NCBI GenBank assembly: GCA_964510435.1
Contig: CAZEBU010000001.1
Coordinates: forward strand, 52,627 to 116,626
Direction of reading: 5' to 3'
DNA: 64,000 bases
DNA from: an uncultured Candidatus Saccharibacteria bacterium
Lineage (GTDB): Bacteria; Patescibacteriota; WWE3; UBA101185; UBA10185
Shown piece after piece: positions 1-33,763 of the stretch (positions within the stretch are counted from its first letter, which is position 1; the number at the start of each line of letters is the position of its first letter). Made by a program: the position numbers and the translations under genes. Under the pieces are notes generated by a model that did no database searches, had not been told where the DNA came from, and was given only the letters and a program-made list of their open reading frames with translations.

Positions 1-249
1 CCCGCCGATAATACCGATCATAACAAGCCTGAACACATTTTTTCCGTCAAGTTGCTTGATCTTTCTCCACTTACCGGAAACCAAGAGTAAGGTTAACAAA
101 ATCAGCCCTACTCCTAAATTTTTAGTAGCAGTAAAAACTAAAGGGGGAGTAATAAAACCCACGGCAAATTTATTAATGAAAATAGACACCCCGGAGACAA
201 GTGCCGTTAGTAAAGCCAAAACAATACCTCTATCGTTACTGGAAAACAT
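1..249 (-). CDS. EamA/DMT-family transporter, N-terminal part; the gene runs off the window start
   Basis: The reverse-strand translation from the ATG at 247-249 reads MFSSNDRGIVLALLTALVSGVSIFINKFAVGFITPPLVF..., which is a TM-rich EamA-like N-terminus. AGGAG lies upstream. The plus-strand ORF 56-262 is antisense to it and is likely spurious. Confidence 0.4.
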   Translation of the reverse strand, partial: MFSSNDRGIVLALLTALVSGVSIFINKFAVGFITPPLVFTATKNLGVGLILLTLLLVSGKWRKIKQLDGKNVFRLVMIGIIGG

Positions 250-293
250 AAATTTCTCCTAAAATTAAAAAAAGCAAACTTTGCTTTGTAAAA

Positions 294-587
294 CTAGGCA
301 GGCCAAACTTGCTGCCCGGTCTCGGTATCAACAATAATTATTGCTTTAGTCGGACACGATTGCGCAGCTAAGAGCAGGTTTTCGGGAGTGTCCGTACTTT
401 CCTCCTGAATGACAGCTTTTTTATCACCGTCCAACACAAAGGTCTCCGGGGAAAAAGCGAGACACGAAGCCGCCCCAATACACAGGTCGCGGATCACCTG
501 AACTTTATATTTGCCAATTTGTACAACTTTGTCTTGTCCTTGTTCGTCCATAAATTTAAGGATATAGGTTTTTAAAAAAATATTCAA
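294..587 (-). CDS. small single-cluster [3Fe/4Fe-4S] ferredoxin (Pyrococcus/Thermotoga type), probable electron acceptor of the adjacent oxidoreductase
   Basis: Motif DLCIGAASCLAFSPETF...AAQSCPT. It is the last gene of the por/acd operon on the minus strand. Confidence 0.6.
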   Translation of the reverse strand: MNIFLKTYILKFMDEQGQDKVVQIGKYKVQVIRDLCIGAASCLAFSPETFVLDGDKKAVIQEESTDTPENLLLAAQSCPTKAIIIVDTETGQQVWPA

Positions 588-598
588 GAACCCTTTAA

Positions 599-1456
599 TT
601 AAATATAGTGCTTAAACAATTCACCCACGTTGTCTCTAACAATCCTATGCGCTATCAAAGGCATTTCGCTAATTTGTGGTAACAACGATTCATAAGTTGG
701 TTTTTCTTCCTTGTAAAAAACTCCCAGAGGTATTTGTTTTTCAGCAAATTCCTGTACTTTCATGAAAGCGGCCTGTTTATCAGCGGGATCATGATCATCA
801 CCTAAATGGTAGGTATTAGCCTGTAAAAATTCGTGAGTCATCGTTTTATTGAAGGCAGTGCACGGCTGAAGAATATCCAATAAAGCAAAACCTTTATGCT
901 CAACAGCTTGCATCATCATTTCCTTAACATGCATAATGTCCCCAGCATAGGCTCTGGCCACAAAGGTAGCTCCCGCCGCAATAGCCACCAGCAAAGGGTT
1001 CAACGGGTTATCCGGATTTCCTTGAGGAGTCGATTTTGATTTATACCCGTGAGGCGTAAGAGGAGAAGTCTGACCCGTGGTCAAAGCATACAAAGCATTG
1101 TCATGTAGAAAAACTGATATGTCATGGTTTCTGCGAGCTGAATGAATAAAGTGATTTCCCCCCTCACCTAAACAATCTCCATCGCCGGTGAAGACAAAGA
1201 CATTGAGCATATGATTAGCTATTTTAATTCCAGTGGCCACAGGAAGTGGACGTCCGTGTAAACCTTCAAAGGAAGTCATTTTGGTGAAATTGAGAATATG
1301 CCCGTGACAGCCTATCCCAGCCACCATAACGGAATTCTTATTATTCCAGTCTTTTTCTACCGCTGCGTTTTTGAAAGCAGCCCAAATAGGCAGGTTGCCA
1401 CATCCGGGACACCAGTTAGGATCGCAGGTTGTTTTTAGATCGTTAAGCGTGGTCAT
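599..1456 (-). CDS. 2-oxoacid:ferredoxin oxidoreductase beta subunit (TPP-binding)
   Basis: CPGCG near the N-terminus and the GDGD TPP motif, with typical PorB/KorB length. It overlaps the upstream gene by 4 bp, which suggests translational coupling. Confidence 0.85.
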   Translation of the reverse strand: MTTLNDLKTTCDPNWCPGCGNLPIWAAFKNAAVEKDWNNKNSVMVAGIGCHGHILNFTKMTSFEGLHGRPLPVATGIKIANHMLNVFVFTGDGDCLGEGGNHFIHSARRNHDISVFLHDNALYALTTGQTSPLTPHGYKSKSTPQGNPDNPLNPLLVAIAAGATFVARAYAGDIMHVKEMMMQAVEHKGFALLDILQPCTAFNKTMTHEFLQANTYHLGDDHDPADKQAAFMKVQEFAEKQIPLGVFYKEEKPTYESLLPQISEMPLIAHRIVRDNVGELFKHYI

Positions 1457-3189
1457 GACTTACCTCCTTCCAACACTGAACTTATTTTTTCCACAAGCTC
1501 CTCTACATAAAAAGGCCTTCCGTCGTATTTAATGAAATTATCCGTGATATCAAAGCCTGTCTGTTCTTTCACAATTCCCCGCATCTGCATAGTGAAGTTT
1601 GCCTCTATATTAACTACGTGCTTGGCTTTTTCTAAAACCTGCTTAACTGCCTCCATCGGAAAGGGACTAACCCAAGTCAAATGTAAGAAGTTTACATTAC
1701 TAAATTCTTTTAGAGCTTGTAGAATAGGCCCTTTATTGCTCCCCCAGGAAACCAGTGTCACCTCCGCTTGCTCCGGCCCAAACAACTGCGGTTGGGGCAT
1801 ATCCTCCTTTTTGCAGGTTTCCAATTTCTGCATTCTTTTCTCCATCTGTTGATTGCGGTTGTCTATTTCTTCGTTGGAAAATCCTATTTCATCATGCTCA
1901 TCCGAATTGGCAATAAAGAAATTACCTACACCGGGAATGCTTCTAGTGGAAATACCGTCTGCTTCCGGTTTGTATCTCCGATAGTTTTCATCAAATTCGG
2001 TAGTAAGTTTTCCACGGTTAATCTCGTAACGGGAAATATCAAACATGGCTACGCTCTGATCGCATTCGCAAATATCCTTGTTAATCAAAACTACTACCGG
2101 GGTCTGGTATTTTTCCGCTAAATTAAAGGCCTGCATGGTCATGTGGAAAGTTTCCTCTACATCACCGGGTGTTAAAACAATGCGCAGAAAATCATCTTGG
2201 TGAGCATGCAAAACAAATCTTAGATCCCCCTGAGCACTCCAAGTAGGAATTCCCGTACCGGGACCGCCTCGCATGCCTTCGATCATGACCACCGGAGTCT
2301 CCGTAATTCCTGCCAAACCATAACCTTCCGACATCAAACAAAAACCACCGCCTGAAGTAGCAGTCATAGATCTGGCGCCGGCAAAAGCTGCCCCCAAAGC
2401 CATATTTATAGCCGCTATCTCATCTTCGGGCTGCTTGTAGACATACTTGTATTCTTCCTGATGCTTAGCCAGCACATGCAAAATGTTGGAAATGGGTGAC
2501 ATAGGATAAATAGAGGCAAACTGCAATCCGGCTGAGATGGCTCCTAGGGCTACTGCTTCGTTACCGTTTAGCACCATCTTTGCCACAGAAGAATCTACGT
2601 TGCCTTCTAACTTAACGGTACTCTTCACTTGATGGGCATAATTTTCTTTCACGAAATTATAACCCAATTCAACCGCTTTTTGATCAGCTTTAACAATATC
2701 TTCACCCTTATCAGCATATTCTTCAGTCACAAGTTTTTTCATCACATGCAAATGCCCATCCATTAAAGCTGTGGCTGCTCCCAAGGCAACTATATTTATC
2801 AACAACTCTCCGCCTCCGGCATCTTTTGCCATATTAAATAAAGGTACGGGACACAAGTTAACCCCCGAGGGAACTTTTGAAGTATCAAGCTTACGATCAC
2901 CGTCAAAAATTATTCCGGATCCCTCCGCTAATTCTCCCAGATGAAAATCTATGGATTCCTGATTTAAAGCCACCAATAATTGCGTGGTCAAACTAGGCCC
3001 CGTAACTTCTTCCTTAGAAACATTGACTTGCATAACATTGTGCCCACCCTTAATGATGGAAGGGTACTCCACAAAGGTAAAAACGTTGTATCCAGACCTA
3101 CTGATAAATCTGGCAAAAGTGATCCCTGAAGATTTTATTCCTTGTCCGGCTTTACCGGCAATTTTAAAGGTAAATACATCTTGTTTCAT
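1453..3189 (-). CDS. 2-oxoacid:ferredoxin oxidoreductase alpha subunit with an N-terminal gamma domain (gamma-alpha fusion)
   Basis: The N-terminus FKIAGKAGQGIKSSGITFA is gamma-like, followed by the alpha core domains; total 578 aa. Confidence 0.85.
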   Translation of the reverse strand: MKQDVFTFKIAGKAGQGIKSSGITFARFISRSGYNVFTFVEYPSIIKGGHNVMQVNVSKEEVTGPSLTTQLLVALNQESIDFHLGELAEGSGIIFDGDRKLDTSKVPSGVNLCPVPLFNMAKDAGGGELLINIVALGAATALMDGHLHVMKKLVTEEYADKGEDIVKADQKAVELGYNFVKENYAHQVKSTVKLEGNVDSSVAKMVLNGNEAVALGAISAGLQFASIYPMSPISNILHVLAKHQEEYKYVYKQPEDEIAAINMALGAAFAGARSMTATSGGGFCLMSEGYGLAGITETPVVMIEGMRGGPGTGIPTWSAQGDLRFVLHAHQDDFLRIVLTPGDVEETFHMTMQAFNLAEKYQTPVVVLINKDICECDQSVAMFDISRYEINRGKLTTEFDENYRRYKPEADGISTRSIPGVGNFFIANSDEHDEIGFSNEEIDNRNQQMEKRMQKLETCKKEDMPQPQLFGPEQAEVTLVSWGSNKGPILQALKEFSNVNFLHLTWVSPFPMEAVKQVLEKAKHVVNIEANFTMQMRGIVKEQTGFDITDNFIKYDGRPFYVEELVEKISSVLEGGKS

Positions 3190-6065
3190 TAGATAAACCT
3201 CTCTGCATAAATTCTATCCTTAGAACACCCCGCGGCCAACAACAAGTCAGTCGCATCGGATATCATGGCACGATGTCCGCAGAGGTAAGCCGAGACTTTG
3301 CTCGCATCCTTATAATCCTCTTTGACATATTTGGTAATAAATCCCGTACACCCCTGCCATTCTTCTCCCGGTTCACAAACCACTATCCTGTAATCAAAGT
3401 TGGGGTATTTTTCTTTTAATTCCTTAAAATGATCCTCCCAAAATACCTCTTCCTGATAAGTTAGTCCAAAATAAAGTTTAACAGGTTTCTTTACACCGTA
3501 TTCCTGCAAAGCAGTGTCCATCATACATCTCACGGCACTCATACCGGAACCTGTGGCTAGCAGTAATATTTCCTCGCCCCCATCATCCTTGTTAAAGGTA
3601 AAGACTCCAAATGGTCCTAGAAAGGGTACCGTATCACCCGGTTTTAGGTTTTCAAAAAATTTAGAGCCCGGACCTCCCGGCCTAGTATCCACTAAAAGAT
3701 AAAACTTATTTGGCCCATCGTGTGTGGCAATAGAATAAGCTCTAATAGCATCGGGGGCTACCTTAACACTAATATATTGTCCCGGTTCGAAATTAAATGG
3801 CTCTTGGGTTTCCAGTTCGTAGTAATGATACTGACTTGCCAGCACTTGGTGATCTTTACAGGTGGCAACTTTCATCTGAGGGGGTACGGCTTTTACTGTT
3901 GCTTCCACCTCTTTCATGACTACTTTACCGTCTACCGCCCAGGCTTCGTCCATGGTGACAATGACGGGGTTGATCTCTATTTCCTCCGCTTCCGGGACCA
4001 TGGTTTCCAGCTTGCTTACTCGCACAATAAGATCGTATAGTTTTTCCATAGCATACTCCGGCTGGCTGTCATGCCCTTGTAATATTCCGTAGATCCTTGA
4101 TTTTTCCACCAGTTTCTTGGCTTGTGCTAAGTTAATAGGTAAAAGATGTAGATTTCTATCCGCGATCAATTCCGCGTAGGATCCTCCCGCGCCAAAAAGC
4201 ATCACAGCGCCAAAAGTGGGGTCGTGCTTAAAACCGACTATTACCTCGATCCCGTGTGGTATGTCTTTCTGGATCTGAAAAGACATATGGTCCTTGACGC
4301 CATCATGCAGCTGCTCCACTTTTCTTTCCATCTTATGCCAAGCATCATCAAGTTGTTCCTCATTAATAATCTCCGTAATTACCCCGCCTATATCTTTTTT
4401 ATGCAAGAGACCGGGTGAAGATAACTTGAGAACCACCGGCCATCCGTACTCCAGAGCAAATTCTTTAGCTTCCTCCAAATTACTCACTAGCCTTGTAGGT
4501 GGTGTCTTGATACCAACTGAAGATAAGATCTTATCTGCAGCTAGATTATCCAAAGTTTTGTGTTTTTCATTGATCGCCCTCTGAATAATTTGCCTAATAT
4601 CATCACCGCCTGTTTCCAGCTTGATCGACTCCTCAGGAGATGTGTCCTCCGGCGGTTCTTGCTGGACTTTTTTAAATTGCCACATCTTGCCTACAGCCCA
4701 GATAGCTCTTTCGGGAAACCTAAAAGAGGGTATTTTATAGGCGTTTAATTTATTTTCTCCTTCCGAAACTAGCTTTCCTCCCATAAAAGAACAAAAAATG
4801 GGTTTACCGTATTTCTTGGAAAGATTACCAATAACTTCTGCCGTTTTTTCGATCTGCGTCATTATCTGAGGTGTCAGAATAACTACTAGAGCATCCGCCT
4901 GATCGTTTTTTAGTATTATCTCCAGGGAATCGGCAAACCTATCAGCCAAAGCATCTCCTAAGATATCTACAGGATTCACAATACTGGCAGATCGCGGCAG
5001 AGCCTCCTTAAGCTTTCCTTTAGTTTCCTCATCAAACTCTGTCAGCTCCAACCCCTCTTCCACCACGGCATCGGCACTTATTACAGCCGGGCCTCCTGCG
5101 TTAGAGACAACTGCTACTTTAGGACCTTGAGGAAGATCCTCCCAAGCAAAAGCCCGCGCCAGATCAAAAAAATCTTCCAAAGTTTTACATCTAATAACAC
5201 CTGCTTGCTCTAAAACAGCTTCCATCACCGAATCCTCACCGGCAATGGCTCCTGTATGAGATTGCATTGCTTTAGCGGCCGCTTTAGTTTTTCCGGGCTT
5301 TATGATAAAAACAGGATCTTTCTTGGTAATTTTTCTGACTATCTCTAAAAATTCTCCGCCCCGAGAAATTGACTCCAAATAAAGTCCGATGGGATTTAAG
5401 TCGGATAGCCCTTCTCCGTTATGAGAAATCAGAGTGTTCTGTGATTGTTCGTAAAAATAATTTAATATGTGGTTTTCATTTAAACCTGCTTTATTTCCCA
5501 AGGTCACAAATTCGCTTATACCCACACCGTTAGAATTACACCAATCAAAAAGACTGGCAGCTATGGCACCTGATTGGGTGATAAATCTTAAATTACCTAC
5601 TTCTTTGACCGGCTCCCCAAAAGTCACATTAATCGGCGATAAATTATTTACAAAACCAAGACAATTGGGGCCCAAAAGGTTAATTTGGTATTTTTTCACT
5701 ATTTCCACCAAATCTTCCTCGAGTTCCTCCCCTTCTTGGCCGATTTCTTTAAATCCTGCCGATAAAACAACCACATTTCTTACACCTTTTTCACCTACCT
5801 CGTTAACCACCTGTAATACAGAGGATGCCGGGATAGCAATAACCACCAACTCGGGTACTTCGGACAAAGCGCTCACGTTTGGAAAAGTCTCTAATTCATT
5901 TATCTTTTCCGCATTTGGATTGATAGGATAAACTTTACCTTTATAACCCGAATTGATAATGTTTTTAAGGATGATTGCTCCTAACTTTTCAGGATTTCTG
6001 GAAGCCCCAACAACTGCTACTGAGGCAGGATAAAATAGCGATGTTACCTCTGTGGGCATATACAT
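3189..6065 (-). CDS. ADP-forming acetyl-CoA synthetase (NDP-forming acyl-CoA synthetase, alpha+beta fused) with a C-terminal ferredoxin-NADP reductase-like FAD/NAD(P)-binding domain
   Basis: The N-terminus has the CoA-binding motif SVAVVGASRNPEKLGAIILKN, followed by a succinyl-CoA-synthetase-like ligase domain and an ATP-grasp domain. The last ~245 aa carry the FNR signatures RAYSIAT (the RxYS FAD motif), ATGSGMSAV and YLCGHRAM. Confidence 0.75.
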   Translation of the reverse strand: MYMPTEVTSLFYPASVAVVGASRNPEKLGAIILKNIINSGYKGKVYPINPNAEKINELETFPNVSALSEVPELVVIAIPASSVLQVVNEVGEKGVRNVVVLSAGFKEIGQEGEELEEDLVEIVKKYQINLLGPNCLGFVNNLSPINVTFGEPVKEVGNLRFITQSGAIAASLFDWCNSNGVGISEFVTLGNKAGLNENHILNYFYEQSQNTLISHNGEGLSDLNPIGLYLESISRGGEFLEIVRKITKKDPVFIIKPGKTKAAAKAMQSHTGAIAGEDSVMEAVLEQAGVIRCKTLEDFFDLARAFAWEDLPQGPKVAVVSNAGGPAVISADAVVEEGLELTEFDEETKGKLKEALPRSASIVNPVDILGDALADRFADSLEIILKNDQADALVVILTPQIMTQIEKTAEVIGNLSKKYGKPIFCSFMGGKLVSEGENKLNAYKIPSFRFPERAIWAVGKMWQFKKVQQEPPEDTSPEESIKLETGGDDIRQIIQRAINEKHKTLDNLAADKILSSVGIKTPPTRLVSNLEEAKEFALEYGWPVVLKLSSPGLLHKKDIGGVITEIINEEQLDDAWHKMERKVEQLHDGVKDHMSFQIQKDIPHGIEVIVGFKHDPTFGAVMLFGAGGSYAELIADRNLHLLPINLAQAKKLVEKSRIYGILQGHDSQPEYAMEKLYDLIVRVSKLETMVPEAEEIEINPVIVTMDEAWAVDGKVVMKEVEATVKAVPPQMKVATCKDHQVLASQYHYYELETQEPFNFEPGQYISVKVAPDAIRAYSIATHDGPNKFYLLVDTRPGGPGSKFFENLKPGDTVPFLGPFGVFTFNKDDGGEEILLLATGSGMSAVRCMMDTALQEYGVKKPVKLYFGLTYQEEVFWEDHFKELKEKYPNFDYRIVVCEPGEEWQGCTGFITKYVKEDYKDASKVSAYLCGHRAMISDATDLLLAAGCSKDRIYAERFI

Positions 6066-6154
6066 AGTCTATTGAACTTTCTAATTTGTGTCAAAGGCAA
6101 AAACCCCTGTTTTATAGTCCTTAACACTAATGATAAGATAGTCTTGTAACTGCC

Positions 6155-7078
6155 ATGAAAAAGGTTTTTAAACTTTCAATTCTTATTATTTTCTTAACCA
6201 TCGCGGCTTATATTGCCATGCCCGCATATTTATTTGCTTCCAGGTGGATCAATTTCTCATTTTGCGACCAACCCATCACTTTTTCTGTTAATCATATAGA
6301 TCCCAGTTTTAATATTTCTAAAAAACAAGTAATAAAAGATGCCAGGGAGGCTGCAAACATTTGGAATAATCTAGCCAAGAAGACTATTTTCCTATACGAC
6401 CCTTCCTCAGCGTTGGATATAAACCTGGTTTACGATGAAAGGCAGAGCAACATTACGCAAATATCCGAAAAAAGAGAGCAGATCGACGAAAAACAAAATG
6501 AGCTTTCCTCCAGTGTAGAGGAATTCGAAGAGAGAAGAGAAAAGCTAACAGAGGATCTAGACAACCTAAACGAAGAAATCTCTTATTGGAACGAAAAGGG
6601 ACGTACCTCAAGGGACATTTATAACCAGCTGATCAGAAAGCAAAAAAATCTGCAAAAAGAGGTGGATAAGATCAACAAAATGGCCGAGCAGCTTAACACC
6701 ACGGCGGACCAGATAAACCAACAAATAACCTCCGTCAACAACAGCGTCAAAAAGTTTAACGAACTCCTTACCGTAAAACCGGAGGAGGGTGTTTATCTGG
6801 GAGGACCTAATAAAATAAATATTTTTATTTACGAGAACGAAACCAGCTTTAGACATACCGTAACCCACGAACTTGGACACGCATTAGGATTGGGCCACGT
6901 GGAAGAAGTGGACTCAATAATGTATCCCATTTCCTCAGAAAACTCGCGTGCCACCGAGGCGGATAGAAGGTTGCTGCAAAATTACTGCCTGGAGCAAAAC
7001 CGCTTAGACTTAATACTAAACGACTTAAAAAACATGTTTTATATACTTTATTCAGAAATAAATAATGTGGTAACATAA
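6155..7078 (+). CDS. membrane-anchored matrixin-like (M10 metzincin) zinc metalloprotease with a coiled-coil insert
   Basis: The N-terminus has a TM helix, and the sequence carries the HExxHxxGxxH motif HELGHALGLGH. It is divergent from the acd/por operon. Confidence 0.6.
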   Translation: MKKVFKLSILIIFLTIAAYIAMPAYLFASRWINFSFCDQPITFSVNHIDPSFNISKKQVIKDAREAANIWNNLAKKTIFLYDPSSALDINLVYDERQSNITQISEKREQIDEKQNELSSSVEEFEERREKLTEDLDNLNEEISYWNEKGRTSRDIYNQLIRKQKNLQKEVDKINKMAEQLNTTADQINQQITSVNNSVKKFNELLTVKPEEGVYLGGPNKINIFIYENETSFRHTVTHELGHALGLGHVEEVDSIMYPISSENSRATEADRRLLQNYCLEQNRLDLILNDLKNMFYILYSEINNVVT

Positions 7079-7083
7079 TTTCT

Positions 7084-7497
7084 ATGCGCAAAACAGTAAA
7101 ACTAATCCTCATAGGAGTTATTATAATAGCCGTTTTATCAATATTTAAAAATGAATCCATTGAAGACATTAAGTTAAGTGAAAATTTGCAAGATATAATT
7201 CCTCCCATTGAGCTCAACGACGCACGACATAACATGGTTAATTTCTCCGTTTGCGATCCTGAGGATAGTTTTTCCTTAGATACTGGGTTGGGTTCAGGTG
7301 GTATAAAAGTTGTTGGTCCAAAAGATGATCACTGCCTGGTAGAAACCCGTTATGAAATAGAGGGCGGTTACTTTATCAATGAATGCCGTATACCCCAAAA
7401 GCTGGGAGAAATGCAATTTGAAGAAACTAATTTTGACGAGCTAGCCCCATACTGCCAACTAAAAAATGAGGGGAACGCCCTTTTGGAGCTAAACTAA
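7084..7497 (+). CDS. hypothetical secreted or membrane-anchored small protein (4 Cys)
   Basis: An N-terminal hydrophobic helix; no recognisable domain. Confidence 0.3.
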   Translation: MRKTVKLILIGVIIIAVLSIFKNESIEDIKLSENLQDIIPPIELNDARHNMVNFSVCDPEDSFSLDTGLGSGGIKVVGPKDDHCLVETRYEIEGGYFINECRIPQKLGEMQFEETNFDELAPYCQLKNEGNALLELN

Positions 7498-7551
7498 TGG
7501 GCGATTATCTTTAGTTTCGAAACTAATATAAAATGTAGTTAGTAAACTGCT

Positions 7552-8799
7552 ATGCCTCAAGAAACTGCCGAAAACACAACTGCAGCAAAACAGCTGCAAA
7601 ATCCTACACTGACTAATTTGCTATCTACCCAGGATGTTGACCCCGTACAAGTCATTAATGCCATCCTGCACGAACTGGCCTATTTGCTGGCCTCCGATAT
7701 TTTGTTCGAGCCGGCTAAAGAAAAAGTGGTTATAAGAGCAAGAATTGACGGTGTGCTCTATAACGTGGGTGATATCGGTCATGACCTATATGCTGCAGTC
7801 TCTTCCAGAATTAAAGTTATTTGTGATCTTGATATAACCAGAAAAAGCCAGATCCAAGAAGGTCAGTTTACCGTCGAACATGAAAACGGCATTATCAATT
7901 TAAGGGTGGAGATAGTAGAAACGGTGCACGGCGAGTTGATCGTCTTAAGACTGCACGAAAAAAGAACCATTGTCATGAAGCTATCCGAATTGGGCTTTAG
8001 TAAAGACGCCTACGACAAGTACTGGAAAATGCTCGACCAAAAAAGCGGCTTAATACTGGTTTGCGGTCCAACCGGTACCGGAAAAACCACCACCATATAC
8101 TCAACTATTACGGCTATCAAGAAAAAGGGAAATTTTAATATCATGACCATTGAAGACCCCGTAGAATTTCATTTGCAGGATACCAACCAAATACAAACCA
8201 GCAAAGAAAGGGATTTCACCTTTGCGGCGGGCTTGAGAACCGTTTTAAGACTCAGTCCGGACGTTGTTTTTGTAGGAGAGATCAGAGATAAGGAAACAGC
8301 CGAAATTGCCGTAGAATCAGGGCTTACGGGATTGTTGGTTCTCTCCACTGTACACGCTGAAGATTCGGTAGGGGCTCTGTTTAGGATGCTCGACTTGGGA
8401 GTAGAGACTTATTTATTAAACTCATCTTTGGTGGGCATAGTTTCTCAAAGACTTGCTCGAAGAAACTGCCCTGTCTGTTTGGAAAGTTACACACCAAATC
8501 AGGAAGAACTAGATATATTTAACGGTATCATGGGAAGACCACCTACCAGATTAGTAAAATCAAAAGGTTGCCCTTCCTGCCAAAATCTTTCTTATAAAGG
8601 AAGGATCGGTATTTACGAAGTTTTAAGAATAGATGCCAAAGTGAGAGGACTGATCAGAAATAAAGCCAGCGAAGAAGAGTTTAGGGAAACTTTAAAACAA
8701 ATGAACTTCACTACTCTTCTAAGAGATGGCTTGCTCAAATGTGAGCAGGGTATTACTACCATTGACGAGGTTTTAAGAAACAGCTTAAGAGTCGAGTAA
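7552..8799 (+). CDS. GspE/PilB-family secretion/pilus-assembly ATPase (minimal form lacking the N-terminal GSPII domain)
   Basis: Walker A GPTGTGKTTT, the Asp and His boxes, and the tetracysteine motif CPVC...CPSC. Confidence 0.8.
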   Translation: MPQETAENTTAAKQLQNPTLTNLLSTQDVDPVQVINAILHELAYLLASDILFEPAKEKVVIRARIDGVLYNVGDIGHDLYAAVSSRIKVICDLDITRKSQIQEGQFTVEHENGIINLRVEIVETVHGELIVLRLHEKRTIVMKLSELGFSKDAYDKYWKMLDQKSGLILVCGPTGTGKTTTIYSTITAIKKKGNFNIMTIEDPVEFHLQDTNQIQTSKERDFTFAAGLRTVLRLSPDVVFVGEIRDKETAEIAVESGLTGLLVLSTVHAEDSVGALFRMLDLGVETYLLNSSLVGIVSQRLARRNCPVCLESYTPNQEELDIFNGIMGRPPTRLVKSKGCPSCQNLSYKGRIGIYEVLRIDAKVRGLIRNKASEEEFRETLKQMNFTTLLRDGLLKCEQGITTIDEVLRNSLRVE

Positions 8800-8840
8800 T
8801 CATCTTGCTAAATTCATGAAAATGTGGGAAGAATATTAGT

Positions 8841-9221
8841 ATGAACGCATTTATTACCAATATAGAAAATGAAACTTTAAGCAACGAAAATTTCCGTAAA
8901 GTCCTTTACACAGGCACCTATAGTCAACTGGCAGTGATGACCTTGCTTCCGGAAGAAGAAATAGGGGAAGAAATCCACCCTGATGTGGATCAATACATCA
9001 GGATACAAACAGGTGTAGCTAAAGTAATCATAGACGGCGAGGAATCGGTAGTAGGTCCGGACTACATTGTACTCATTCCCGCAGGAGCACGGCATAATGT
9101 GGTCAATGAATCAGTTGATGAGAACCTGAGATTATACACCATATATACACCACCCGAACACCCTAAGGGCACGATACATCGTTCGAAAGAAGAGGGCAAA
9201 AAGCACGAGCCCAGTCATTAG
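8841..9221 (+). CDS. cupin-domain protein
   Basis: A small beta-barrel signature (G-x5-H...H) and 126 aa. Confidence 0.45.
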   Translation: MNAFITNIENETLSNENFRKVLYTGTYSQLAVMTLLPEEEIGEEIHPDVDQYIRIQTGVAKVIIDGEESVVGPDYIVLIPAGARHNVVNESVDENLRLYTIYTPPEHPKGTIHRSKEEGKKHEPSH

Positions 9222-9255
9222 TTATTTTTGATGTAGTTAGGTTGCAAAAAACCTC

Positions 9256-10827
9256 ATGAAAAAAGAAAAGATCTTTTTATCGCTTACTATCATATTAATC
9301 GTAGCCACTATCCTATTTATTACTCTTTTTTCGGATAAGGATAGGGAGGTTAGAAAAGAAAACAAAAGTCTTATCACAGAAACGCAAGACTTAGTAGCAA
9401 GCAATCTGGAAAACGCTTCCAAAAAAATAAGAAATTCTGCTGTTGCCGGACAATTCTACCCCGGAGAAGCGGAAGAACTAAGAACACAGATCAGAGGTTA
9501 CCTGGAATCTGCAGAAAAGATATACAAGGAAGGAAAAATCAGAGTACTCATAGCCCCTCATGCCGGATTAGATTTCTCCGGGAAAACTGCGGGTATGGCA
9601 TTTAAACAGATTCAGGGAGAAAAATACTCCAAAGTAATAGTCTTGGGTATTAACCACAAAGAACCTTTTAAACACGCGGCTGTCTTTCCCAGCGGAAACT
9701 GGGCAACTCCTCTGGGAAATGTACCCATAGACCAAGAGCTAGCTGCTAGAATCGTCAACGGCACGGATATCATTTTCGACACGCAAGCTCACAAAAATGA
9801 ACATAGCATAGAGATGGTGGTACTCTTTCTTAAAGAAGCACTGGCTGATTTCGAACTCGTGCCCATCATGCTGGGAGCACCAAAAGCGGATACTACTGAG
9901 AGGCTGGCTTACAAATTAGCCGGTGTCATGGATGAAGATACCTTAATTGTGGTCAGCACAGATCTCTCTCACTACCCTACCTGGGAAGTTGCCAATGAAG
10001 TCGACAGAAAAACGATAAATGGCGTACTCTCCGGCGAGGTAAAAAAACTTGACCATGCCTCTGCTTTTAATTACGCCAAAAAATATCCCGATTTAAGTAC
10101 CTCCGCCTGCGGATTCCAACCACTCAGAGTTAGTATGAGGGTCGCCGAGATACTAAATCTGGGCAAATTTACGGAAATCGACTATACCAATTCCGGGGAT
10201 ATAACCGGTAATAAAGAAAGGGTAGTGGGTTATGCGGCTCTTGGAGTCTGGAGTACCAGTTTGCAGAAACCTGTACTTGATAAAGAGGCTAGAGAAGAGA
10301 CCATAAAGCTGGCTAGAGATACCCTGGATGAATACTACCGAACTAATTTAAAAATGTACTACGAACCTAAAAGTGAGGTGCTTAAAAAACCAATTGGGGC
10401 TTTTGTTAGCATGTACAAATCAGATAGCCTTAGAGGCTCCATAGGGCGTTTTGACCCAGACATTCCTCTGTACGAAGTGATCCAAGATATGGCCATCGCC
10501 GCTGCAACCCAAGACCGCAGATTTACTCCAGTTAAAGAGGAGGAGCTTTCAGATATAGATATGGTGATATCTGTCATGGGTCCACTAGAAATTATTGATG
10601 ATTGGAGGAAAATTAAGCTTGGTGTACACGGAGTGAGGATTGTTCAGAATAGGAAAACCGGAGTTTTATTACCCCAGGTTGCTACAGATAATAATTGGGA
10701 CTTGGAAACTTTTCTAAATACTACATGTACTCAAAAGGCGGGCTTGGGAAGGGAATGTTACAAAGATCCTAAAGTCAAGATATATACTTTCGAAGCAGAC
10801 ATTATCAGGGAGCAGGAAACCCTATAG
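9256..10827 (+). CDS. fusion protein with an N-terminal TM anchor, a MEMO1-like domain (AmmeMemoRadiSam system protein B) and an AMMECR1 domain
   Basis: The N-terminal half reads AGQFYPGEAEELRTQIRGYLE...IAPHAGLDFSG, which is the Memo/dioxygenase class III fold. The C-terminal half reads GAFVSMYK...LRGSIGRFDP...DRRFTPV, which is AMMECR1. Confidence 0.7.
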   Translation: MKKEKIFLSLTIILIVATILFITLFSDKDREVRKENKSLITETQDLVASNLENASKKIRNSAVAGQFYPGEAEELRTQIRGYLESAEKIYKEGKIRVLIAPHAGLDFSGKTAGMAFKQIQGEKYSKVIVLGINHKEPFKHAAVFPSGNWATPLGNVPIDQELAARIVNGTDIIFDTQAHKNEHSIEMVVLFLKEALADFELVPIMLGAPKADTTERLAYKLAGVMDEDTLIVVSTDLSHYPTWEVANEVDRKTINGVLSGEVKKLDHASAFNYAKKYPDLSTSACGFQPLRVSMRVAEILNLGKFTEIDYTNSGDITGNKERVVGYAALGVWSTSLQKPVLDKEAREETIKLARDTLDEYYRTNLKMYYEPKSEVLKKPIGAFVSMYKSDSLRGSIGRFDPDIPLYEVIQDMAIAAATQDRRFTPVKEEELSDIDMVISVMGPLEIIDDWRKIKLGVHGVRIVQNRKTGVLLPQVATDNNWDLETFLNTTCTQKAGLGRECYKDPKVKIYTFEADIIREQETL

Positions 10828-10903
10828 CATTGACTGCCAAAACACCTTATTATATAATGCCAACAACCTACAAAAAATAGTAGAAAAAGAGAGGAGCTGT
10901 GTC

Positions 10904-11323
10904 ATGTTGTTGAAGAGAATCTTTTCGGTGATCTTCCCACCTATAGAGTTTGTGAAGGGAAAGCTGTACATTCGTGTGCTTAGTGGAAAACCGAAGCTGC
11001 TGTTCTACCCTGATGAGGATGTTCAATTCAATTACCGTAGCTTCCAAACGCAAGACCTTGTGCAGATGCTTTGGGGTGACTCTAAACCACATTTTGGTGG
11101 AGGCACTGATTTTGCACACCACGGAGAACAAATAGGATCACGGGTTCTGGTAGAGTTTCGGGAAGCCGGCGATGATGACATTCGTGCAATCTTTGACAAT
11201 TGGTCGGAGCAACATGGAATACCTACCATTGCAGAATTTTCTGACGAAGTGCAAAGACAATGCAACGATTTGTTAGCTAACGAGAAAGATCGTATAGCTC
11301 GCATTGCCGGAAACTATCAGTAA
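10904..11323 (+). CDS. hypothetical protein (139 aa) with locally elevated GC
   Basis: It has a good RBS (GAGAGGAG) and is followed by a clean hairpin terminator. About 46% GC against about 35% for its neighbours. Confidence 0.35.
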   Translation: MLLKRIFSVIFPPIEFVKGKLYIRVLSGKPKLLFYPDEDVQFNYRSFQTQDLVQMLWGDSKPHFGGGTDFAHHGEQIGSRVLVEFREAGDDDIRAIFDNWSEQHGIPTIAEFSDEVQRQCNDLLANEKDRIARIAGNYQ

Positions 11324-11340
11324 CTTCACTGAGTTAACAA

Positions 11341-11377
11341 CCCTCTTCGTTTCTCCCGGAGAGGGTTTTTCTTTTTT
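11341..11377 (+). terminator. rho-independent terminator
   Basis: A CCCTCT...AGAGGG stem followed by TTTTTCTTTTTT. Confidence 0.6.
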
Positions 11378-11380
11378 AAT

Positions 11381-13120
11381 TTAATTATTAAGCAAAATAA
11401 GTTGTTTTATTACATGCTCATTTTCAGGGTCTAAGCTTAAAGCATGTAGATACAAATTTTTTGCGTGTTCTGCCAACCCCAGATTATAGTACAAATCTGC
11501 AGTTATAATCGCAGTGTCTATAGAATTTGGATTATAGGCCAAGGCTTTATTTAAAAAATACGACACTGTTCTGGGTTCTTCTTGTTGTTGCAGGTAATTT
11601 ATACCGTTATCCAGCATAATTTTCGCATAATTCTCGTCCACCTCTTCTGGTTTAAATTCGTCCCAAAAAATTAGGGGTTTGTGCTCCAGGTAGATAAATC
11701 CCAGATTATTTATAGCCGTACCGGAGGTTTCCACCACTGTAAGAGCCTGCTCATAGTATTCCACCGCTTTATTGACATCACCCTGGTAATAATAATGCCC
11801 GCCAATGTCGTTATATGGTCTGACGCTCAACGGCGAGGCCCTCATATTAGCAAAAGATAAAGTAACCGTATTTTGCCATTCATCATTTCTTATGTACGTC
11901 AATATGGAAAAGACCACTAAAATAGGCGCTAAAATAAGATAAGGCAGGTACTTGATCTTAGTTACTCTACCCAAATATAGCAAGGCAATGGAAACAAGAA
12001 TGGCAAAGATGGCAGTGCCGGAATATAAGTAACGTTCTGCTAAAAACCAGGTGATCTTCACCGGAGAGTAGGTTGGCCCCAGCATAATAGGCATAATAAT
12101 AAAAAGTCCCGCCAGCTCCCTGTTACGTTTCCACAGGTAGATCAATACGATGGCATAAACAATAAAGATCGTGTACATGGAAAAGTATAAAAGCTTGGTA
12201 ACCTCCATGCCGTCGTAATAAACAGTGAGGTTGTGGGGAAAAACATAAAGCCTGCTCATTAAAAAAGTAGTGTACGGATAGCCTTCAACTACAGGCTTTA
12301 AGGCTTGTGTATTTAAGGTCACCCTTTTACCCCCTTCGGACCTAGTGGCTACTCTGTTTTCGTAGGCTTCGCCGAAATAAGTAAAAAGATATATGCTAAT
12401 GGGTATGGCGTACAAGGCTACCCACCAAAGTTTGGAGAGATCAAACTTATCCTCCAGAATAAATTGATCCAGCACTACCATGGTCATAGGCACAACCAGT
12501 ATCCACGGGGCTCGTACCAAATAGATCATAAGTACGTAAACCGCTAACGAAAAATAAAGGTATCTTTTTTTCTGTGAATGCTTATACGAAAGGTAGAGTA
12601 ATAAGATTATATAGGTGAATAAAGCAACGTATAGATACGGACTGCCACTGATCCAAGTAGCTGCTTCCGTATTTATAGGGTGCACTGCAAAGATAAGAGC
12701 AGACATCATGGCTATCTTTCTGCCATAGATCTTGTAAACAAAAAGGAAAACCAGCAAAGTAACCGTCGTATGTAAAGTAACTGACACTACTCGTAAGGGA
12801 AGAGGATCATACTCCCAGTACCTATAAGAAATGGCATAGACAATCTTCTGGATCTGACCAAATCTTAACGATTCCTGCAAGTCTGTGGTTCTTTCGTCAA
12901 AAACAAATGATTGCATGTCATCTACAAGAGTTACTTCGTTGTCCAAAGAATTGTAATAAAGCCCCACAGACAACAAAACTAAGATCCCCATAAAAAAGAG
13001 GTTTTTTCTGAGAATCGTTTTTATACCGGGGGGACTTTTTAACTTAAATCCTACATGTTGTTCTTTTTGTTTCTGGAGTTTCCTTAGCCTTCTTCTTTCC
13101 TTTTTGGTCAGTTTTCCCAT
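11381..13120 (-). CDS. polytopic membrane protein with C-terminal TPR repeats (TMTC/PMT-like glycosyltransferase architecture)
   Basis: About 11 predicted TM helices followed by TPR-like repeats (the segment YYNLGLAEHAKNLYLHALSLDPENEHV). Confidence 0.45.
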   Translation of the reverse strand: MGKLTKKERRRLRKLQKQKEQHVGFKLKSPPGIKTILRKNLFFMGILVLLSVGLYYNSLDNEVTLVDDMQSFVFDERTTDLQESLRFGQIQKIVYAISYRYWEYDPLPLRVVSVTLHTTVTLLVFLFVYKIYGRKIAMMSALIFAVHPINTEAATWISGSPYLYVALFTYIILLLYLSYKHSQKKRYLYFSLAVYVLMIYLVRAPWILVVPMTMVVLDQFILEDKFDLSKLWWVALYAIPISIYLFTYFGEAYENRVATRSEGGKRVTLNTQALKPVVEGYPYTTFLMSRLYVFPHNLTVYYDGMEVTKLLYFSMYTIFIVYAIVLIYLWKRNRELAGLFIIMPIMLGPTYSPVKITWFLAERYLYSGTAIFAILVSIALLYLGRVTKIKYLPYLILAPILVVFSILTYIRNDEWQNTVTLSFANMRASPLSVRPYNDIGGHYYYQGDVNKAVEYYEQALTVVETSGTAINNLGFIYLEHKPLIFWDEFKPEEVDENYAKIMLDNGINYLQQQEEPRTVSYFLNKALAYNPNSIDTAIITADLYYNLGLAEHAKNLYLHALSLDPENEHVIKQLILLNN

Positions 13121-29119: not shown

Positions 29120-29968
29120 CTAATCTATGGAACATACCTGTTCTGCTTCAGTTACAAGTTCCATTACCCTTTTAGAATCAAATGATTTATCTAGCAATAC
29201 CCTCCGGCTTTTTTCTTCTCTAAGATCCCTACATAAAACGATGCCACAGTCTAACAAATCCTTTTTCTCTTGTTGTGTAATACTCTTTAAACACGTTATT
29301 GGATGTAAACCGGAATCATCTATAAGTTTTTGTAACGATGCATCATTTGGATACCCCCAGCCCAACATCTTAACACCGGCACATTCCCCAAATTTTATAG
29401 CATCAGATGTAAACTTAGTGTTTGTGACAACCCATCCTTGATGGAATTTATTCATGTGACCTTCTTTTTTTTCCCACACATCAGCTACGTCCTCGAACCT
29501 AGATTTTATATACATTGGAACCTTTACATCTGTTTTATAACCCTGCCTATTATGATATTTACACTCAATCATAAAATGCTCATTATCCTTCAATGCGACA
29601 ACGTCAACCTCGTGACTAACACACTTCCCTTGCACAATTGCCCCCACCTCCACCTTGTACCCATAATTCTCCAAAATCCTACCGATATATCTTTCAAACG
29701 GGAAACCTGTTGGTCCTAATTGCATAATTGCCTTTTTCAGATTATATCTGGATGTTGTATGAGGTTCATGTTTGTTAAGAAAATCTACTATGATCTCGTG
29801 AATTTCTTTGGTTGATATGTTGTTGTAAAGCTTCGCAAGCACAAATTCTCGGGCCCTCTCCTCAAGACCTCTATTTATCCCAGCATTTCTTATGGACCTA
29901 ATTAGCTTTTCGGCCGAAAAAAGTTGCTGAGAAGAATCATACTTCGTTACATAAATTTTTTCAGTCAT
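29120..29968 (-). CDS. ATP-cone domain fused to an Mrr-like (PD-(D/E)xK) restriction endonuclease domain
   Basis: The N-terminus KIYVTKYDSSQQLFSAEKLIRSI is an ATP-cone. The centre FERYIGRIL...HEVDVVAL...MIECKYH is the Mrr catalytic core. Confidence 0.55.
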   Translation of the reverse strand: MTEKIYVTKYDSSQQLFSAEKLIRSIRNAGINRGLEERAREFVLAKLYNNISTKEIHEIIVDFLNKHEPHTTSRYNLKKAIMQLGPTGFPFERYIGRILENYGYKVEVGAIVQGKCVSHEVDVVALKDNEHFMIECKYHNRQGYKTDVKVPMYIKSRFEDVADVWEKKEGHMNKFHQGWVVTNTKFTSDAIKFGECAGVKMLGWGYPNDASLQKLIDDSGLHPITCLKSITQQEKKDLLDCGIVLCRDLREEKSRRVLLDKSFDSKRVMELVTEAEQVCSID

Positions 29969-32231: not shown

Positions 32232-32902
32232 TTTAAATGTTCATACAACCCCGACCACAAAAATCCTAGTACAAGGGCGAATAGTAGCTCTTCTAGAGGT
32301 ACTTTGAGTACCATAATCCCCGTCAGTTTTCCTAAATTCCACACCTCCATCGTCCAGTTAGGGAAAAAGAGGTTAAGTGCTACAAAAAAAATAAAATAAA
32401 AAGCAAAGAAAATAATAGAACCTAGAAACATCTTGTACTTGAGATCGGGCCTACAATAGAGTGAAAAAACACCTCCGATGAATAGAGAAGCTATTGTTAC
32501 ATAAATAATATTCCAGCCAGTAAATGTGTAAAGAAGTATAAATGCTAAAGGAGCTGACATGATGATTAGCTTATGGTAACGGTGCCTAAGGTGTTGCTTG
32601 TCTAGCTTGGAAAATTTTAAATATCTGGTCTTTCTAATCACTTCATAAGATACTGTAGCTAGACCGCCAATACTAAATGCGAATATTAGACTTTCTATGT
32701 CAAAGCCAGTTGTTTGAGCCAAATTGAACAAAGATGGCGGCTCCCAATATTCAGGTACAAAAAAAGGCTCTGTCAAACCAAAAAAGGAAGTAAGAACGCT
32801 AACGTATATCATAGCCCTTTTACTATCCTTATTAATCTTCAAGTAAACAAGAACCCAAACGAGCAAAAATATTAAACTACCAATAAGCCAAGTATATTGC
32901 AT
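32201..32902 (-). CDS. lycopene-cyclase-domain (CrtYcd-like) membrane protein
   Basis: Two PxEE motifs, FVPEYW and VPLEELLF, in a 7-TM protein. Confidence 0.45.
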   Translation of the reverse strand: MQYTWLIGSLIFLLVWVLVYLKINKDSKRAMIYVSVLTSFFGLTEPFFVPEYWEPPSLFNLAQTTGFDIESLIFAFSIGGLATVSYEVIRKTRYLKFSKLDKQHLRHRYHKLIIMSAPLAFILLYTFTGWNIIYVTIASLFIGGVFSLYCRPDLKYKMFLGSIIFFAFYFIFFVALNLFFPNWTMEVWNLGKLTGIMVLKVPLEELLFALVLGFLWSGLYEHLNWYTISTRRR

Positions 32903-32906
32903 AATT

Positions 32907-33173
32907 TTATTCTTTTAACTTTAGCAAAGCGTCATCATATTCTCTCTCACCTATTTCCCCCTCCGCAAATCTTCTCTTAAGAATATCAGTAGGATTTTCT
33001 GTATCCGTATCTCTGGATTCTGATTGTTTGCGACCCATCATATAAACGAAATAAACTAGCAGTGCTAAAGCAATTACCCCAAAAAACATCATATACATTA
33101 CTCCGCCAAAACTTGTACTTGGAAGATGGTGAGAGTACAGCTCTGTGTTTGTACTATGCGCTAATTGCTCCAT
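32907..33173 (-). CDS. SHOCT-domain membrane protein
   Basis: C-terminal ILKRRFAEGEIGEREYDDALLKL. Confidence 0.5.
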   Translation of the reverse strand: MEQLAHSTNTELYSHHLPSTSFGGVMYMMFFGVIALALLVYFVYMMGRKQSESRDTDTENPTDILKRRFAEGEIGEREYDDALLKLKE

Positions 33174-33191
33174 GTTCAGTAGTTAAATGGA

Positions 33192-33398
33192 CTAAACTCC
33201 AACATATTTTTGCGGGTCGTCTACAAAATGAATTTTGCAGTGTTCAGAGCAAAAGTGATATTCTTTCCCCTTGTAAATAAAAATAAAATCGGTTTCATTC
33301 GTAAACTCCATACCACAAACTAGATCTAGTAAAACCTTCTCAGCATAAGCAAACTCTTTTGGCCTTTTTAGCTTTTTCATAAAAAAATTACTTCCCAA
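33192..33398 (-). CDS. YHS/TRASH-domain metal-binding protein
   Basis: CGMEF...YHFCSEHC. Confidence 0.55.
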   Translation of the reverse strand: MGSNFFMKKLKRPKEFAYAEKVLLDLVCGMEFTNETDFIFIYKGKEYHFCSEHCKIHFVDDPQKYVGV

Positions 33399-33510
33399 CT
33401 AAAGCCACTTTAATTTTAGACAATAATGAAAAATTACCATTGGCTTCCGCCTTACCGCGTTTGACCTTAACTTTCTTTTTCTTTTTATTACCTCCGCAGC
33501 ATCCTGACAT
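33388..33510 (-). CDS. small Cys-rich basic peptide (MSGCCGGNKKKKKVKVKRGKAEANGNFSLLSKIKVALVGK), not in the ORF track
   Basis: 40 codons inside the copper cluster with an N-terminal CC motif. Its last codons share a few bases with the start of the YHS gene (33398). Confidence 0.2.
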   Translation of the reverse strand: MSGCCGGNKKKKKVKVKRGKAEANGNFSLLSKIKVALVGK

Positions 33511-33763
33511 ATTAATACTCCTTTAAAATTAAATTATTAATTACCTTTTTCATTTTCTATTAGTGTTCGCACCCAACTATACGTAAAACCTGTTATCCAG
33601 GCAGAAAGCGCTAAAGACACGCCTCCAAATAGTAATCCCGAAAAGGTCATATTCCATAACCCCAGTACATCAATGTTAAGACCGTGTAACCACTAACGGG
33701 TGATTTGCTAGTGTGTATTTATTTTTCATAATAATCAATATCTCCAATAACAAAACGTTAAAT

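Follow-up and report, generated by a model that had tools for sequence, protein, structure and literature searches.

An ADP-forming acyl-CoA synthetase fused to a ferredoxin-NAD(P) reductase-type module, encoded beside a two-subunit 2-oxoacid:ferredoxin oxidoreductase in Patescibacteria

From domain content, predicted fold, sequence conservation and gene order, we understand a gene cluster in a 64,000-nt stretch of contig CAZEBU010000001.1 (hereafter the window), where it runs from position 6065 to 294 on the minus strand, as a five-gene catabolic module of Microgenomates/WWE3-type Patescibacteria, with a rough probability of 0.55 for this reading as a whole. The leading gene encodes a single polypeptide in which the entire body of an ADP-forming acyl-CoA synthetase (ACD) is joined to a C-terminal module of the ferredoxin-NAD(P) reductase (FNR) type; the genes that follow encode a two-subunit 2-oxoacid:ferredoxin oxidoreductase (OFOR), a small ferredoxin with three cysteines and an EamA-family permease. 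The FNR module would serve to connect the ferredoxin with the pool of NAD(P). Taken singly, the parts are all of known families (ACD, FNR, two-subunit OFOR, a ferredoxin that is [3Fe-4S]-type by motif, EamA), and the combination of ACD with FNR is apparently undescribed. The original prediction for this DNA, made from the letters alone, had not recognised the architecture as a described one, and searches of the literature, the coverage of which was incomplete, brought up no description, a negative that does not amount to evidence of absence. The fusion is nonetheless widespread in public data, where it has gone unremarked: the WWE3 RAAC2 gene (CP006914, locus L030) was entered simply as ACD (PMC3812714), and for Ch65 a POR, an ACS and a ferredoxin-NADP reductase were listed with the fusion not noted (PMC7143001).

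Domains, fold and conservation of the ACD-FNR fusion

Pfam and NCBIfam searches bore out the composition that had been predicted for the 958-residue protein, namely the alpha and beta parts of an ACD followed by a C-terminal FNR module. Its gene (3189..6065, minus strand, stop codon inside the coordinates) is defined by the open reading frame (ORF), the Pfam and NCBIfam matches and a 100% match to the protein P0001. Over aa 13-716, Pfam places CoA_binding/CoA_binding_2, Succ_CoA_lig, Ligase_CoA_2 and ATP-grasp_5 in succession. The alpha part (aa 1-473; 4647..6065, minus strand) accounts for CoA_binding_2 (E = 6.8e-23), Succ_CoA_lig (3.9e-40) and Ligase_CoA_2 (1.4e-09), while the beta part (aa 481-720; 3906..4625, minus strand) consists of ATP-grasp_5, matched at 2.5e-60 over profile positions 2-220 of 221 and at E = 4.5e-34 to the sequence of 1WR2. 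Two histidines mark the ACD chemistry. The phosphohistidine-type His270 (in SHTGA; codon at 5256-5258) aligns with the SHTGA of 8WZU and 9Y43, and His555 (codon at 4401-4403) with the HK histidine of the ACD beta subunits 1WR2 and 4XYL_B; each is found in 51/51 sequences of an alignment of diverse family members, from which all residue conservation figures given here for the fusion protein are taken. Alpha domains, ATP-grasp beta domain and both histidines together identify the NDP-forming acyl-CoA synthetase superfamily, and because both histidines are invariant, the ACD body is probably catalytic. For the same reason, the candidate of an inactive body like that of the Pat acetyltransferases was considered unlikely and set aside; Pfam finds no GNAT domain in the 958-aa protein, the C-terminal domain being FNR, so that the protein is not of Pat type. 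The name "acetyltransferase" given to some homologues at JGI is a transfer from the Pat family. The acetate-specific equivalog TIGR02717 scores 488 bits against a cutoff of 567, with other equivalogs far under their cutoffs, and the acyl substrate is therefore not fixed as acetate.

An eight-residue linker (aa 721-728; 3882..3905, minus strand; pLDDT <50 in the full-length AlphaFold2 model) leads from the ATP-grasp domain into the FNR-type FAD/NAD(P) module at aa 729-958 (3192..3881, minus strand), which at ~230 aa is shorter than the ~245 aa first estimated. Pfam assigns FAD_binding_6 (741-823) and NAD_binding_1 (835-938) to this tail and no Fer2 domain to any part of the 958-aa protein, in agreement with the predicted lack of a 2Fe-2S domain. 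The segments RAYSIAT, ATGSGMSAV and YLCGHRAM, cited earlier as signatures, are all present in the translated ORF, and the recognisable FNR motifs comprise RAYS, GGPGS, TGSG, YLCG, the penultimate Phe957 and an acidic E873. Invariant in the alignment are Y777, S778, G798, G800, S801, T838, G839 and G930; C929 (49/51) and F957 (46/51) are nearly so. Residue 873 is invariantly acidic (E/D) and aligns with the E/D of the NADH-dependent MmoC and BenC, which may be taken as a lead towards NAD over NADP but not as a test of it. The arginine of the RxYS motif (R775; codon at 3741-3743) is replaced by asparagine in 19/51 members. By eye, members with the replacement seem to have CGN where the others have CGH (residue 931) and to end in EKF, a covariation that suggests two FNR subfamilies.

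The kinship of the module is consistent across methods, with PDB sequence matches to MmoC, BenC and NqrF. NCBIfam models match the tail in the flavin/NAD part of MmoC (positions 135-341 of 343, for instance), BenC and AntC, and a Fre-type NAD(P)H-flavin reductase model is matched end to end (positions 4-230 of 233); every one of these matches lies below its curated cutoff. From an alignment of 23 sequences, AlphaFold2 modelled the last 234 residues at pLDDT 96 and pTM 0.90. Foldseek comparison of this model with the PDB recovered the FAD/NAD domains of NqrF, carbazole dioxygenase reductase, GcoB and BenC as well as E. coli Fre (2R6H, 5OGX, 1KRH and 1QFJ among them), at E-values down to 5.6e-23 and TM scores of 0.85-0.89. 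The two-domain fold, a six-stranded beta-barrel with a Rossmann-like domain, together with the sequence motifs places the module in the FNR superfamily, and the FAD/NAD-binding fold on which the original prediction had staked its case is predicted at pLDDT 96. Membership of the BenC/MmoC/NqrF type was rejected, given that the [2Fe-2S] domain is lacking. For the full-length protein, pLDDT was 85 and pTM 0.66; the individual domains are confident, and low confidence is confined to aa 259-267 (in the phosphohistidine loop, just before His270), 358-371, the alpha-beta linker at 474-480 and the linker at 721-728.

The fusion is real and under selection, as a survey across genomes makes clear. A homologue search over 5.8 billion proteins listed 120 clusters with full-length homologues, that of the identical protein and 119 further ones at 54-74% identity, and the ACD Pfam domains together with NAD_binding_1 are found in 120/120 of them, with FAD_binding_6 also in 118. 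Where the listed homologues carry a name, it is WWE3, Roizmanbacteria, Woesebacteria or "Patescibacteria group". When a profile of the FNR module was run against one genome per GTDB species, a relative was found in 163 genomes, of which the best 80 were analysed (tblastn and an ORF script). The loci in all 80 are Patescibacteria-type, and in 53 of them the fusion occupies one open frame of ~940-1000 codons with a full ACD, which is partial where some of the contigs end. The FNR modules of the fused relatives are 41-68% identical to that of the window. That a frameshift or assembly error had joined two genes, or that one of the halves has decayed into inactivity as in the Pat proteins, is extremely unlikely in the light of these results. 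What might speak for such an origin is a shift of reading frame within the ACD part of one locus (L049) and the Arg-to-Asn replacement in RxYS mentioned above. Set against it are the recurrence of one open frame across 53 independent species genomes and all 120 of the listed clusters, confident structure models, and the invariance or near-invariance of His270, His555, YS, GGxGS, TGSG, CG and the C-terminal Phe; the earlier argument that the fusion is no frameshift artefact therefore stands. As separate observations on the survey, the frame change of L049 (4849-6976) may be an assembly error or a pseudogene, and several TPA_asm loci (L024, L025, L044, L054, L066 and others) are titled Saccharibacteria, Gammaproteobacteria or Pseudomonadales, which seems at odds with their Patescibacteria-type gene content.

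A wider and exhaustive profile search, covering 1.84 billion cluster representatives, gave 971 relatives of the FNR module at E≤1e-30, mostly stand-alone proteins of 225-250 aa. Fused representatives at 50% identity amounted to a handful only (P0035, P0125, P0129 and fragments), and no other large fusion partner occurred in the top 150 of this search. The family of small FNRs is thus far larger than the one clade to which the fusion is restricted.

The gene cluster, its unfused relatives and the probable origin of the fusion

Four tightly packed ORFs lie exactly at the coordinates first noted for them, on the minus strand and with the ACD-FNR gene first and the ferredoxin gene last; it is this strand and order that correct the earlier description. 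Transcription would thus proceed from ACD-FNR through OFOR gamma-alpha and OFOR beta to ferredoxin and on to the EamA gene. The claim of overlapping start and stop codons holds for two junctions, ACD-FNR/OFOR alpha (TAATG, 1-nt overlap) and OFOR alpha/beta (ATGA, 4-nt overlap, with GGAGG eight bases upstream), and not for the ferredoxin gene, the ATG of which is separated from the OFOR beta stop by a 47-nt gap. The original prediction also missed the fifth conserved gene (EamA), the three-cysteine nature of the ferredoxin and the distant stand-alone FNR relatives that are linked to SUF genes.

OFOR alpha (1453..3189, minus strand; 578 aa) combines a gamma-like POR domain with POR_N and PFOR_II and scores 607 bits with TIGR03710 (cutoff 482.75). 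OFOR beta (599..1456, minus strand; 285 aa) is TPP-binding, has a single [4Fe-4S] site (CPGC, GIGC, QPC) and scores 309.6 bits with TIGR02177 (cutoff 261.9); its cysteine-containing segments align to the Sulfolobus tokodaii subunit 5B46_B (E = 5.8e-64). Pfam finds no Fer4 domain in either subunit. A gamma-like, TPP-type alpha subunit, a TPP/[4Fe-4S] beta subunit and no delta subunit or ferredoxin domain define the enzyme as a two-subunit OFOR, a type without built-in ferredoxin domain (PMC5020499), and because of the missing internal domain, the enzyme needs an external ferredoxin. The ferredoxin gene (294..587, minus strand) gives 97 aa from TTG 587 or 85 aa from ATG 551, the latter in agreement with the 82-85 aa of the homologues. 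The product matches Fer4_13 and Fer4_15 and contains exactly three cysteines, CIGAASC...SCP, with Ala for the second Cys of CxxCxxC in 55/56 ferredoxin homologues from related loci. The pattern CXXA/GXXC(X)nCP is the motif of [3Fe-4S] ferredoxins (PMC6237146), and by this motif the operon ferredoxin is classed as [3Fe-4S]-type. A canonical four-Cys [4Fe-4S] ferredoxin was rejected in view of the conserved CxxAxxC...CP arrangement. The EamA/DMT-family transporter gene, of which the window contains the 5' part (83 codons; 1..249, minus strand) before its edge cuts it, is preceded by AGGAG-N6-ATG. Its product is 47% identical to the ferredoxin-following EamA permease of L001, and an EamA gene stands 3' of the ferredoxin gene on the same strand, usually at ≤70 nt, in 33 related loci.

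The arrangement has been kept along with the fusion. OFOR alpha lies <200 nt downstream of, or overlaps, the fusion gene in 48/53 fused loci; a ferredoxin of the same type is found downstream in 37 of the 41 that have enough sequence, at ≤250 nt from OFOR beta in 27 of these 37 and further off in the rest; and EamA follows the ferredoxin in 25 of the 39 with room for it. Five loci of the same clade are unfused with OFOR and ferredoxin still downstream. Three of them (L026, L027, L028) have a stand-alone FNR directly 5' of OFOR alpha, beta and ferredoxin and no ACD within 7 kb upstream, and the remaining two (L045, L054) have a separate ACD gene of ~714 aa located 1.7-2.5 kb upstream. The single-cell genome locus L045 (3133-7699) is of the latter kind, with ACD (714 aa) and FNR (232 aa) as separate genes, between which lie a Pyr_redox_2 flavoprotein (407 aa) and, facing the other way, a flavodoxin (158 aa), so that the whole forms a redox neighbourhood. 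At a sixth unfused locus, L062, the contig ends inside the FNR gene. The unfused variants keep FNR at the OFOR-ferredoxin genes, and so the module tracks OFOR and ferredoxin, not ACD alone.

A further 19 more distant loci (31-37% identity; Beckwith-, Collier- and Dojkabacteria and other Microgenomates), spanning L065-L083 with L077 (3009-8029) and L071 (2203-8059) as examples, contain a stand-alone FNR of roughly 240-290 codons. Ten of these have the same three-Cys ferredoxin ≤700 nt after the FNR, and in 10/19 genes of SufB, SufD, SufS or SufU stand just 5' of the FNR, contiguously in L077 and L078; neither OFOR nor EamA occurs near the FNR in any of the 19. No suf genes are found within 7 kb in the fused clade, and in L027, which is an unfused FNR-OFOR cluster, SufS-SufU come after the ferredoxin. 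In Beckwith-, Collier- and other Microgenomates, the gene order of the distant loci suggests that SUF Fe-S assembly may draw its electrons from the FNR/ferredoxin pair. As a separate observation, the complete Beckwithbacteria genome CP011210 (L067, 6303-7948) has two tandem FNR paralogues (221 and ~230-262 aa) followed by the three-Cys ferredoxin. In a neighbour-joining tree of the FNR modules, which has no support values and is indicative only, the SUF-linked stand-alone FNRs fall outside a single OFOR-linked clade, within which L045 and L054 branch first and L026-L028 nest among the fused sequences. The simplest reading is that an old FNR-ferredoxin pair was recruited beside OFOR and ACD, that loss of one stop codon produced the fusion and that fission or loss occurred occasionally thereafter. 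Because the FNR stays with the same type of ferredoxin across deep divergence, the three-Cys ferredoxin is likely the partner of the FNR module.

Proposed electron flow and its direction

In the mechanism that we propose, the two-subunit OFOR would convert a 2-oxoacid (probably pyruvate) and CoA into acyl-CoA and CO2 with reduction of the co-encoded ferredoxin, and the ACD part would use the acyl-CoA with ADP and Pi to form the acid, ATP and CoA. The C-terminal FNR of the Fre/BenC class, binding FAD and probably NAD as opposed to NADP, would exchange electrons between the ferredoxin and the pyridine-nucleotide pool, and during 2-oxoacid oxidation NAD(P)+ most likely receives the electrons of the reduced ferredoxin. 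Both co-substrates of the OFOR would then be regenerated by a single polypeptide, because ACD sets free CoA and FNR re-oxidises the ferredoxin. The EamA permease might plausibly move the acid or the 2-oxoacid. The acyl-CoA+CO2/2-oxoacid couple has a potential of ~-500 mV, compared with -320 mV for NAD(P), so that the sequence 2-oxoacid, ferredoxin, FAD, NAD(P)+ is feasible and its reverse is not. A redox scheme comprising POR, ACS and ferredoxin-NADP reductase was proposed independently in the Microgenomates genome paper (PMC7143001).

The energetic argument also bears on the idea that the cluster works reductively, as an assimilatory 2-oxoacid synthase in which ACD activates an acid with ATP and OFOR carboxylates the acyl-CoA by way of ferredoxin that NAD(P)H has reduced through FNR. 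In its favour, each of the three enzyme types can in principle work both ways, transfer from NADH to Fe-S is what the closest characterised FNR homologues perform, and the EamA permease could import acids. The carboxylation demands electrons at ~-500 mV, however, for which NAD(P)H at -320 mV acting through a [3Fe-4S]-type ferredoxin is far too weak without bifurcation, and the cluster has no bifurcating components. We regard this use of the enzymes as very improbable.

Several points weigh against flow from ferredoxin to NAD(P)+. In all the closest characterised relatives of the FNR module (MmoC, BenC, AntC, NqrF, GcoB, CarAd, Fre), NAD(P)H is the source of the electrons, and Fe-S or flavin receives them. 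By its motif, CxxAxxC(x)nCP, the ferredoxin is of the [3Fe-4S] type, usually more positive than NAD(P)H; potentials of -203 to -85 mV were reported for such ferredoxins characterised previously and of -340 to +230 mV for the M. marinum set (PMC6237146), and reduction of NAD(P)+ would on this account be uphill unless the ferredoxin pool is highly reduced. The distant FNR-ferredoxin pairs adjacent to SUF genes are most naturally read as donors that pass electrons from NAD(P)H to ferredoxin. Lastly, no electron sink for the extra NAD(P)H, as needed in a fermenter, was identified in the 64-kb window. The original prediction that FNR re-oxidises the OFOR-reduced ferredoxin with NAD(P)+ is thus upheld in its linking of FNR, ferredoxin and OFOR, through conserved gene order and the unfused variants, whereas the direction it gave is less certain in view of the [3Fe-4S]-type motif, the relatives working from NADH to Fe-S and the SUF-linked pairs. 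The physical coupling of phosphorylation to redox balancing that it also envisaged is hypothetical, the linker being short and of low confidence.

These considerations lend some weight to a different function, unlikely on balance yet deserving of serious attention, in which the FNR mainly transfers electrons from NAD(P)H through FAD to the [3Fe-4S] ferredoxin as a reductant of moderate potential for SUF or other ferredoxin-dependent enzymes, with OFOR a second, independent reducer of the ferredoxin and the fusion to ACD a neutral joining of neighbours that brings no mechanistic coupling. Besides the motif in 55/56 ferredoxin homologues, with usual potentials above NAD(P)H, and the uniformly NAD(P)H-oxidising characterised homologues, its support comes from the suf genes just 5' of FNR in 10/19 distant loci, the SufS-SufU genes of L027 and the established role of ferredoxin, FNR and NADPH in ISC Fe-S assembly (PMC4547094). 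The fused clade argues otherwise. It has no suf genes within 7 kb, its FNR stays tied to OFOR in 48/53 loci as well as to an ACD that yields ATP, and the cluster would have no oxidiser of ferredoxin if OFOR and FNR both only reduced it; maintenance of the fusion although FNR modules have diverged to 41-68% identity with that of the window argues for a functional link under selection.

A direct complex, in which ACD-FNR docks on OFOR and FAD takes electrons from the beta [4Fe-4S] cluster so that a PNO-like metabolon results and ferredoxin becomes a side branch, is rated improbable. It finds favour in the way the ACD-FNR, alpha and beta genes overlap at their start and stop codons, in the direct adjacency of OFOR alpha (48/53), compared with a spacing of ≤250 nt between OFOR beta and ferredoxin in no more than 27/37, and in the precedent of PNO, in which PFOR is fused to an FNR-type reductase (PMC3129679). 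It is disfavoured by the greater age and wider conservation of the FNR-ferredoxin pairing, by the absence (Pfam) of PNO's additional FMN domain from the cluster, and by the full-length model, with its pTM of 0.66 and a linker of low confidence. Somewhat less doubtful, though still speculative, is the extended proposal that ACD-FNR and OFOR form a stable soluble metabolon, inside which CoA and the three-Cys ferredoxin are held captive and recycled, and which replaces pyruvate dehydrogenase and Pta-Ack, the FNR-ferredoxin pair having ancestrally been a SUF donor. If this were true, the overall conversion would be 2-oxoacid + ADP + Pi + NAD+ -> acid + CO2 + ATP + NADH, and a large clade of ultra-small bacteria would balance its ferredoxin by a ferredoxin-wired route.

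The catabolic module as first outlined, with FNR linking ferredoxin to NAD(P), has importance for the physiology of the Patescibacteria (candidate phyla radiation, CPR), which are abundant, uncultured and metabolically minimal fermenters. How CPR bacteria re-oxidise ferredoxin and supply NAD(P)H without respiratory chains has so far been inferred from gene lists only; ACD-FNR, the OFOR and ferredoxin now offer a concrete four-protein system that can be expressed and reconstituted for the study of their ferredoxin-NAD(P) balance. Automated names such as "acetate--CoA ligase family protein" and "acetyltransferase" mask a redox domain in many database entries. Furthermore, the stand-alone FNR-ferredoxin pairs attached to SUF genes are a candidate for the poorly defined SUF electron donor.

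Neighbouring features and comparison with known systems

A promoter-like TTGACA-17-TAGACT (6066..6094, minus strand; 10/12 match), weak as evidence, abuts the first ATG of the ACD-FNR gene. The second ATG at 6059 may be the true start, giving a product of 956 aa, in line with the 954-956 aa of many ACD-FNR homologues; it is situated ~7 nt past the promoter-like site, and the mRNA may be leaderless or nearly so. A weak hairpin and a T-run are found directly 3' of the ferredoxin stop. Another terminator-like site (205-185) lies inside the EamA ORF and was dismissed as probably due to chance. Promoter and terminator scans of the region yielded site counts not above the expectation from shuffling, and an Rfam scan of the window detected two tRNAs only, none near the operon. 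GC skew, calculated for positions 1-12000, tracks transcription, being -0.07 to -0.24 on the plus strand across the minus-strand operon and turning positive past ~6.5 kb, where the genes are on the plus strand; an unusual strand composition disparity has been noted in Microgenomates (PMC7143001).

Upstream of the operon and divergent from it, a matrixin-like Peptidase_M10 gene (6155-7078, plus strand) has a likewise divergent counterpart at the P0081 locus. At 9256-10827 (plus strand) a single 523-aa ORF unites Memo-like and AMMECR1 domains. These two families are usually separate proteins. The region 29961-37100 begins with an E1-E2 (P-type) ATPase and continues as an island in which the genes are small and no long ORF occurs; a zinc-ribbon/YHS-like protein, a CsoR-like metal sensor and several putative toxin-antitoxin-like pairs (PIN-like with HTH; nucleotidyltransferase with HEPN-like) were noted by eye.

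Comparison with characterised systems reveals how familiar parts have been put together in an apparently new way. Known ACDs (the Pyrococcus enzyme, 4XYL from Ca. Korarchaeum, the fused alpha-beta protein 8WZU) exhibit the same five-subdomain alpha-beta body and both histidines, and the ACD part matches 8WZU at E = 1.8e-116 and 4XYL_A at 4e-90; what distinguishes the window protein is its extra C-terminal FNR module of ~230 aa. Extension or repurposing of a ~700-aa NDP-forming acyl-CoA synthetase-like body has parallels in the Pat acetyltransferases (9IT0, 9ISQ) and the DMSP lyase DddX (7CM9). In Pat acetyltransferases the ACD-like body does not act as a catalyst and the C-terminal domain is a GNAT, whereas the window protein carries an FNR at this place and retains both ACD histidines as invariant residues. 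The FNR module shares fold and motifs with the Fre/LuxG flavin reductases and with the FAD/NAD domains of BenC, MmoC, AntC, NqrF, GcoB and CarAd. Like Fre, it is without Fe-S domain; the plant-type [2Fe-2S] domain that is fused to BenC, MmoC and NqrF has no counterpart in the window FNR. What sets the window FNR apart from this entire group is its fusion to ACD and its pairing with a three-Cys ferredoxin encoded by a gene of its own, and its physiological direction may be reversed.

The StOFOR of Sulfolobus tokodaii (5B46-5B48) has the same alpha/beta subunit plan with no intramolecular ferredoxin domain; it is archaeal, whereas the OFOR of the window is from Patescibacteria and shares its cluster with the ACD-FNR, three-Cys ferredoxin and permease genes. 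The distant stand-alone FNRs with three-Cys ferredoxin at the ends of suf operons are akin to the ferredoxin/FNR supply of the ISC system, in which ferredoxin, FNR and NADPH feed IscS/IscU (PMC4547094). That precedent employs a [2Fe-2S] ferredoxin, while a role for the SUF-linked [3Fe-4S]-type pair is suggested from gene order, and the fused copy in the window has no suf neighbours. Closest in its logic to the ACD-FNR cluster is PNO of Euglena, Cryptosporidium and Blastocystis, where a covalently recruited FNR-type flavoprotein passes OFOR-type electrons to NAD(P)+ (PMC3129679). In PNO the reductase (FMN plus FNR, of the P450-reductase type) is fused to PFOR; in the window, by comparison, a bare FNR is carried on ACD and the ferredoxin is free. 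Pfam detects no flavoprotein domain on the OFOR subunits and no flavodoxin-like domain in the cluster, so that the resemblance to PNO is a functional analogy only, with the recruited reductase placed on the enzyme that makes ATP from the acyl-CoA instead of on the one that oxidises the 2-oxoacid.

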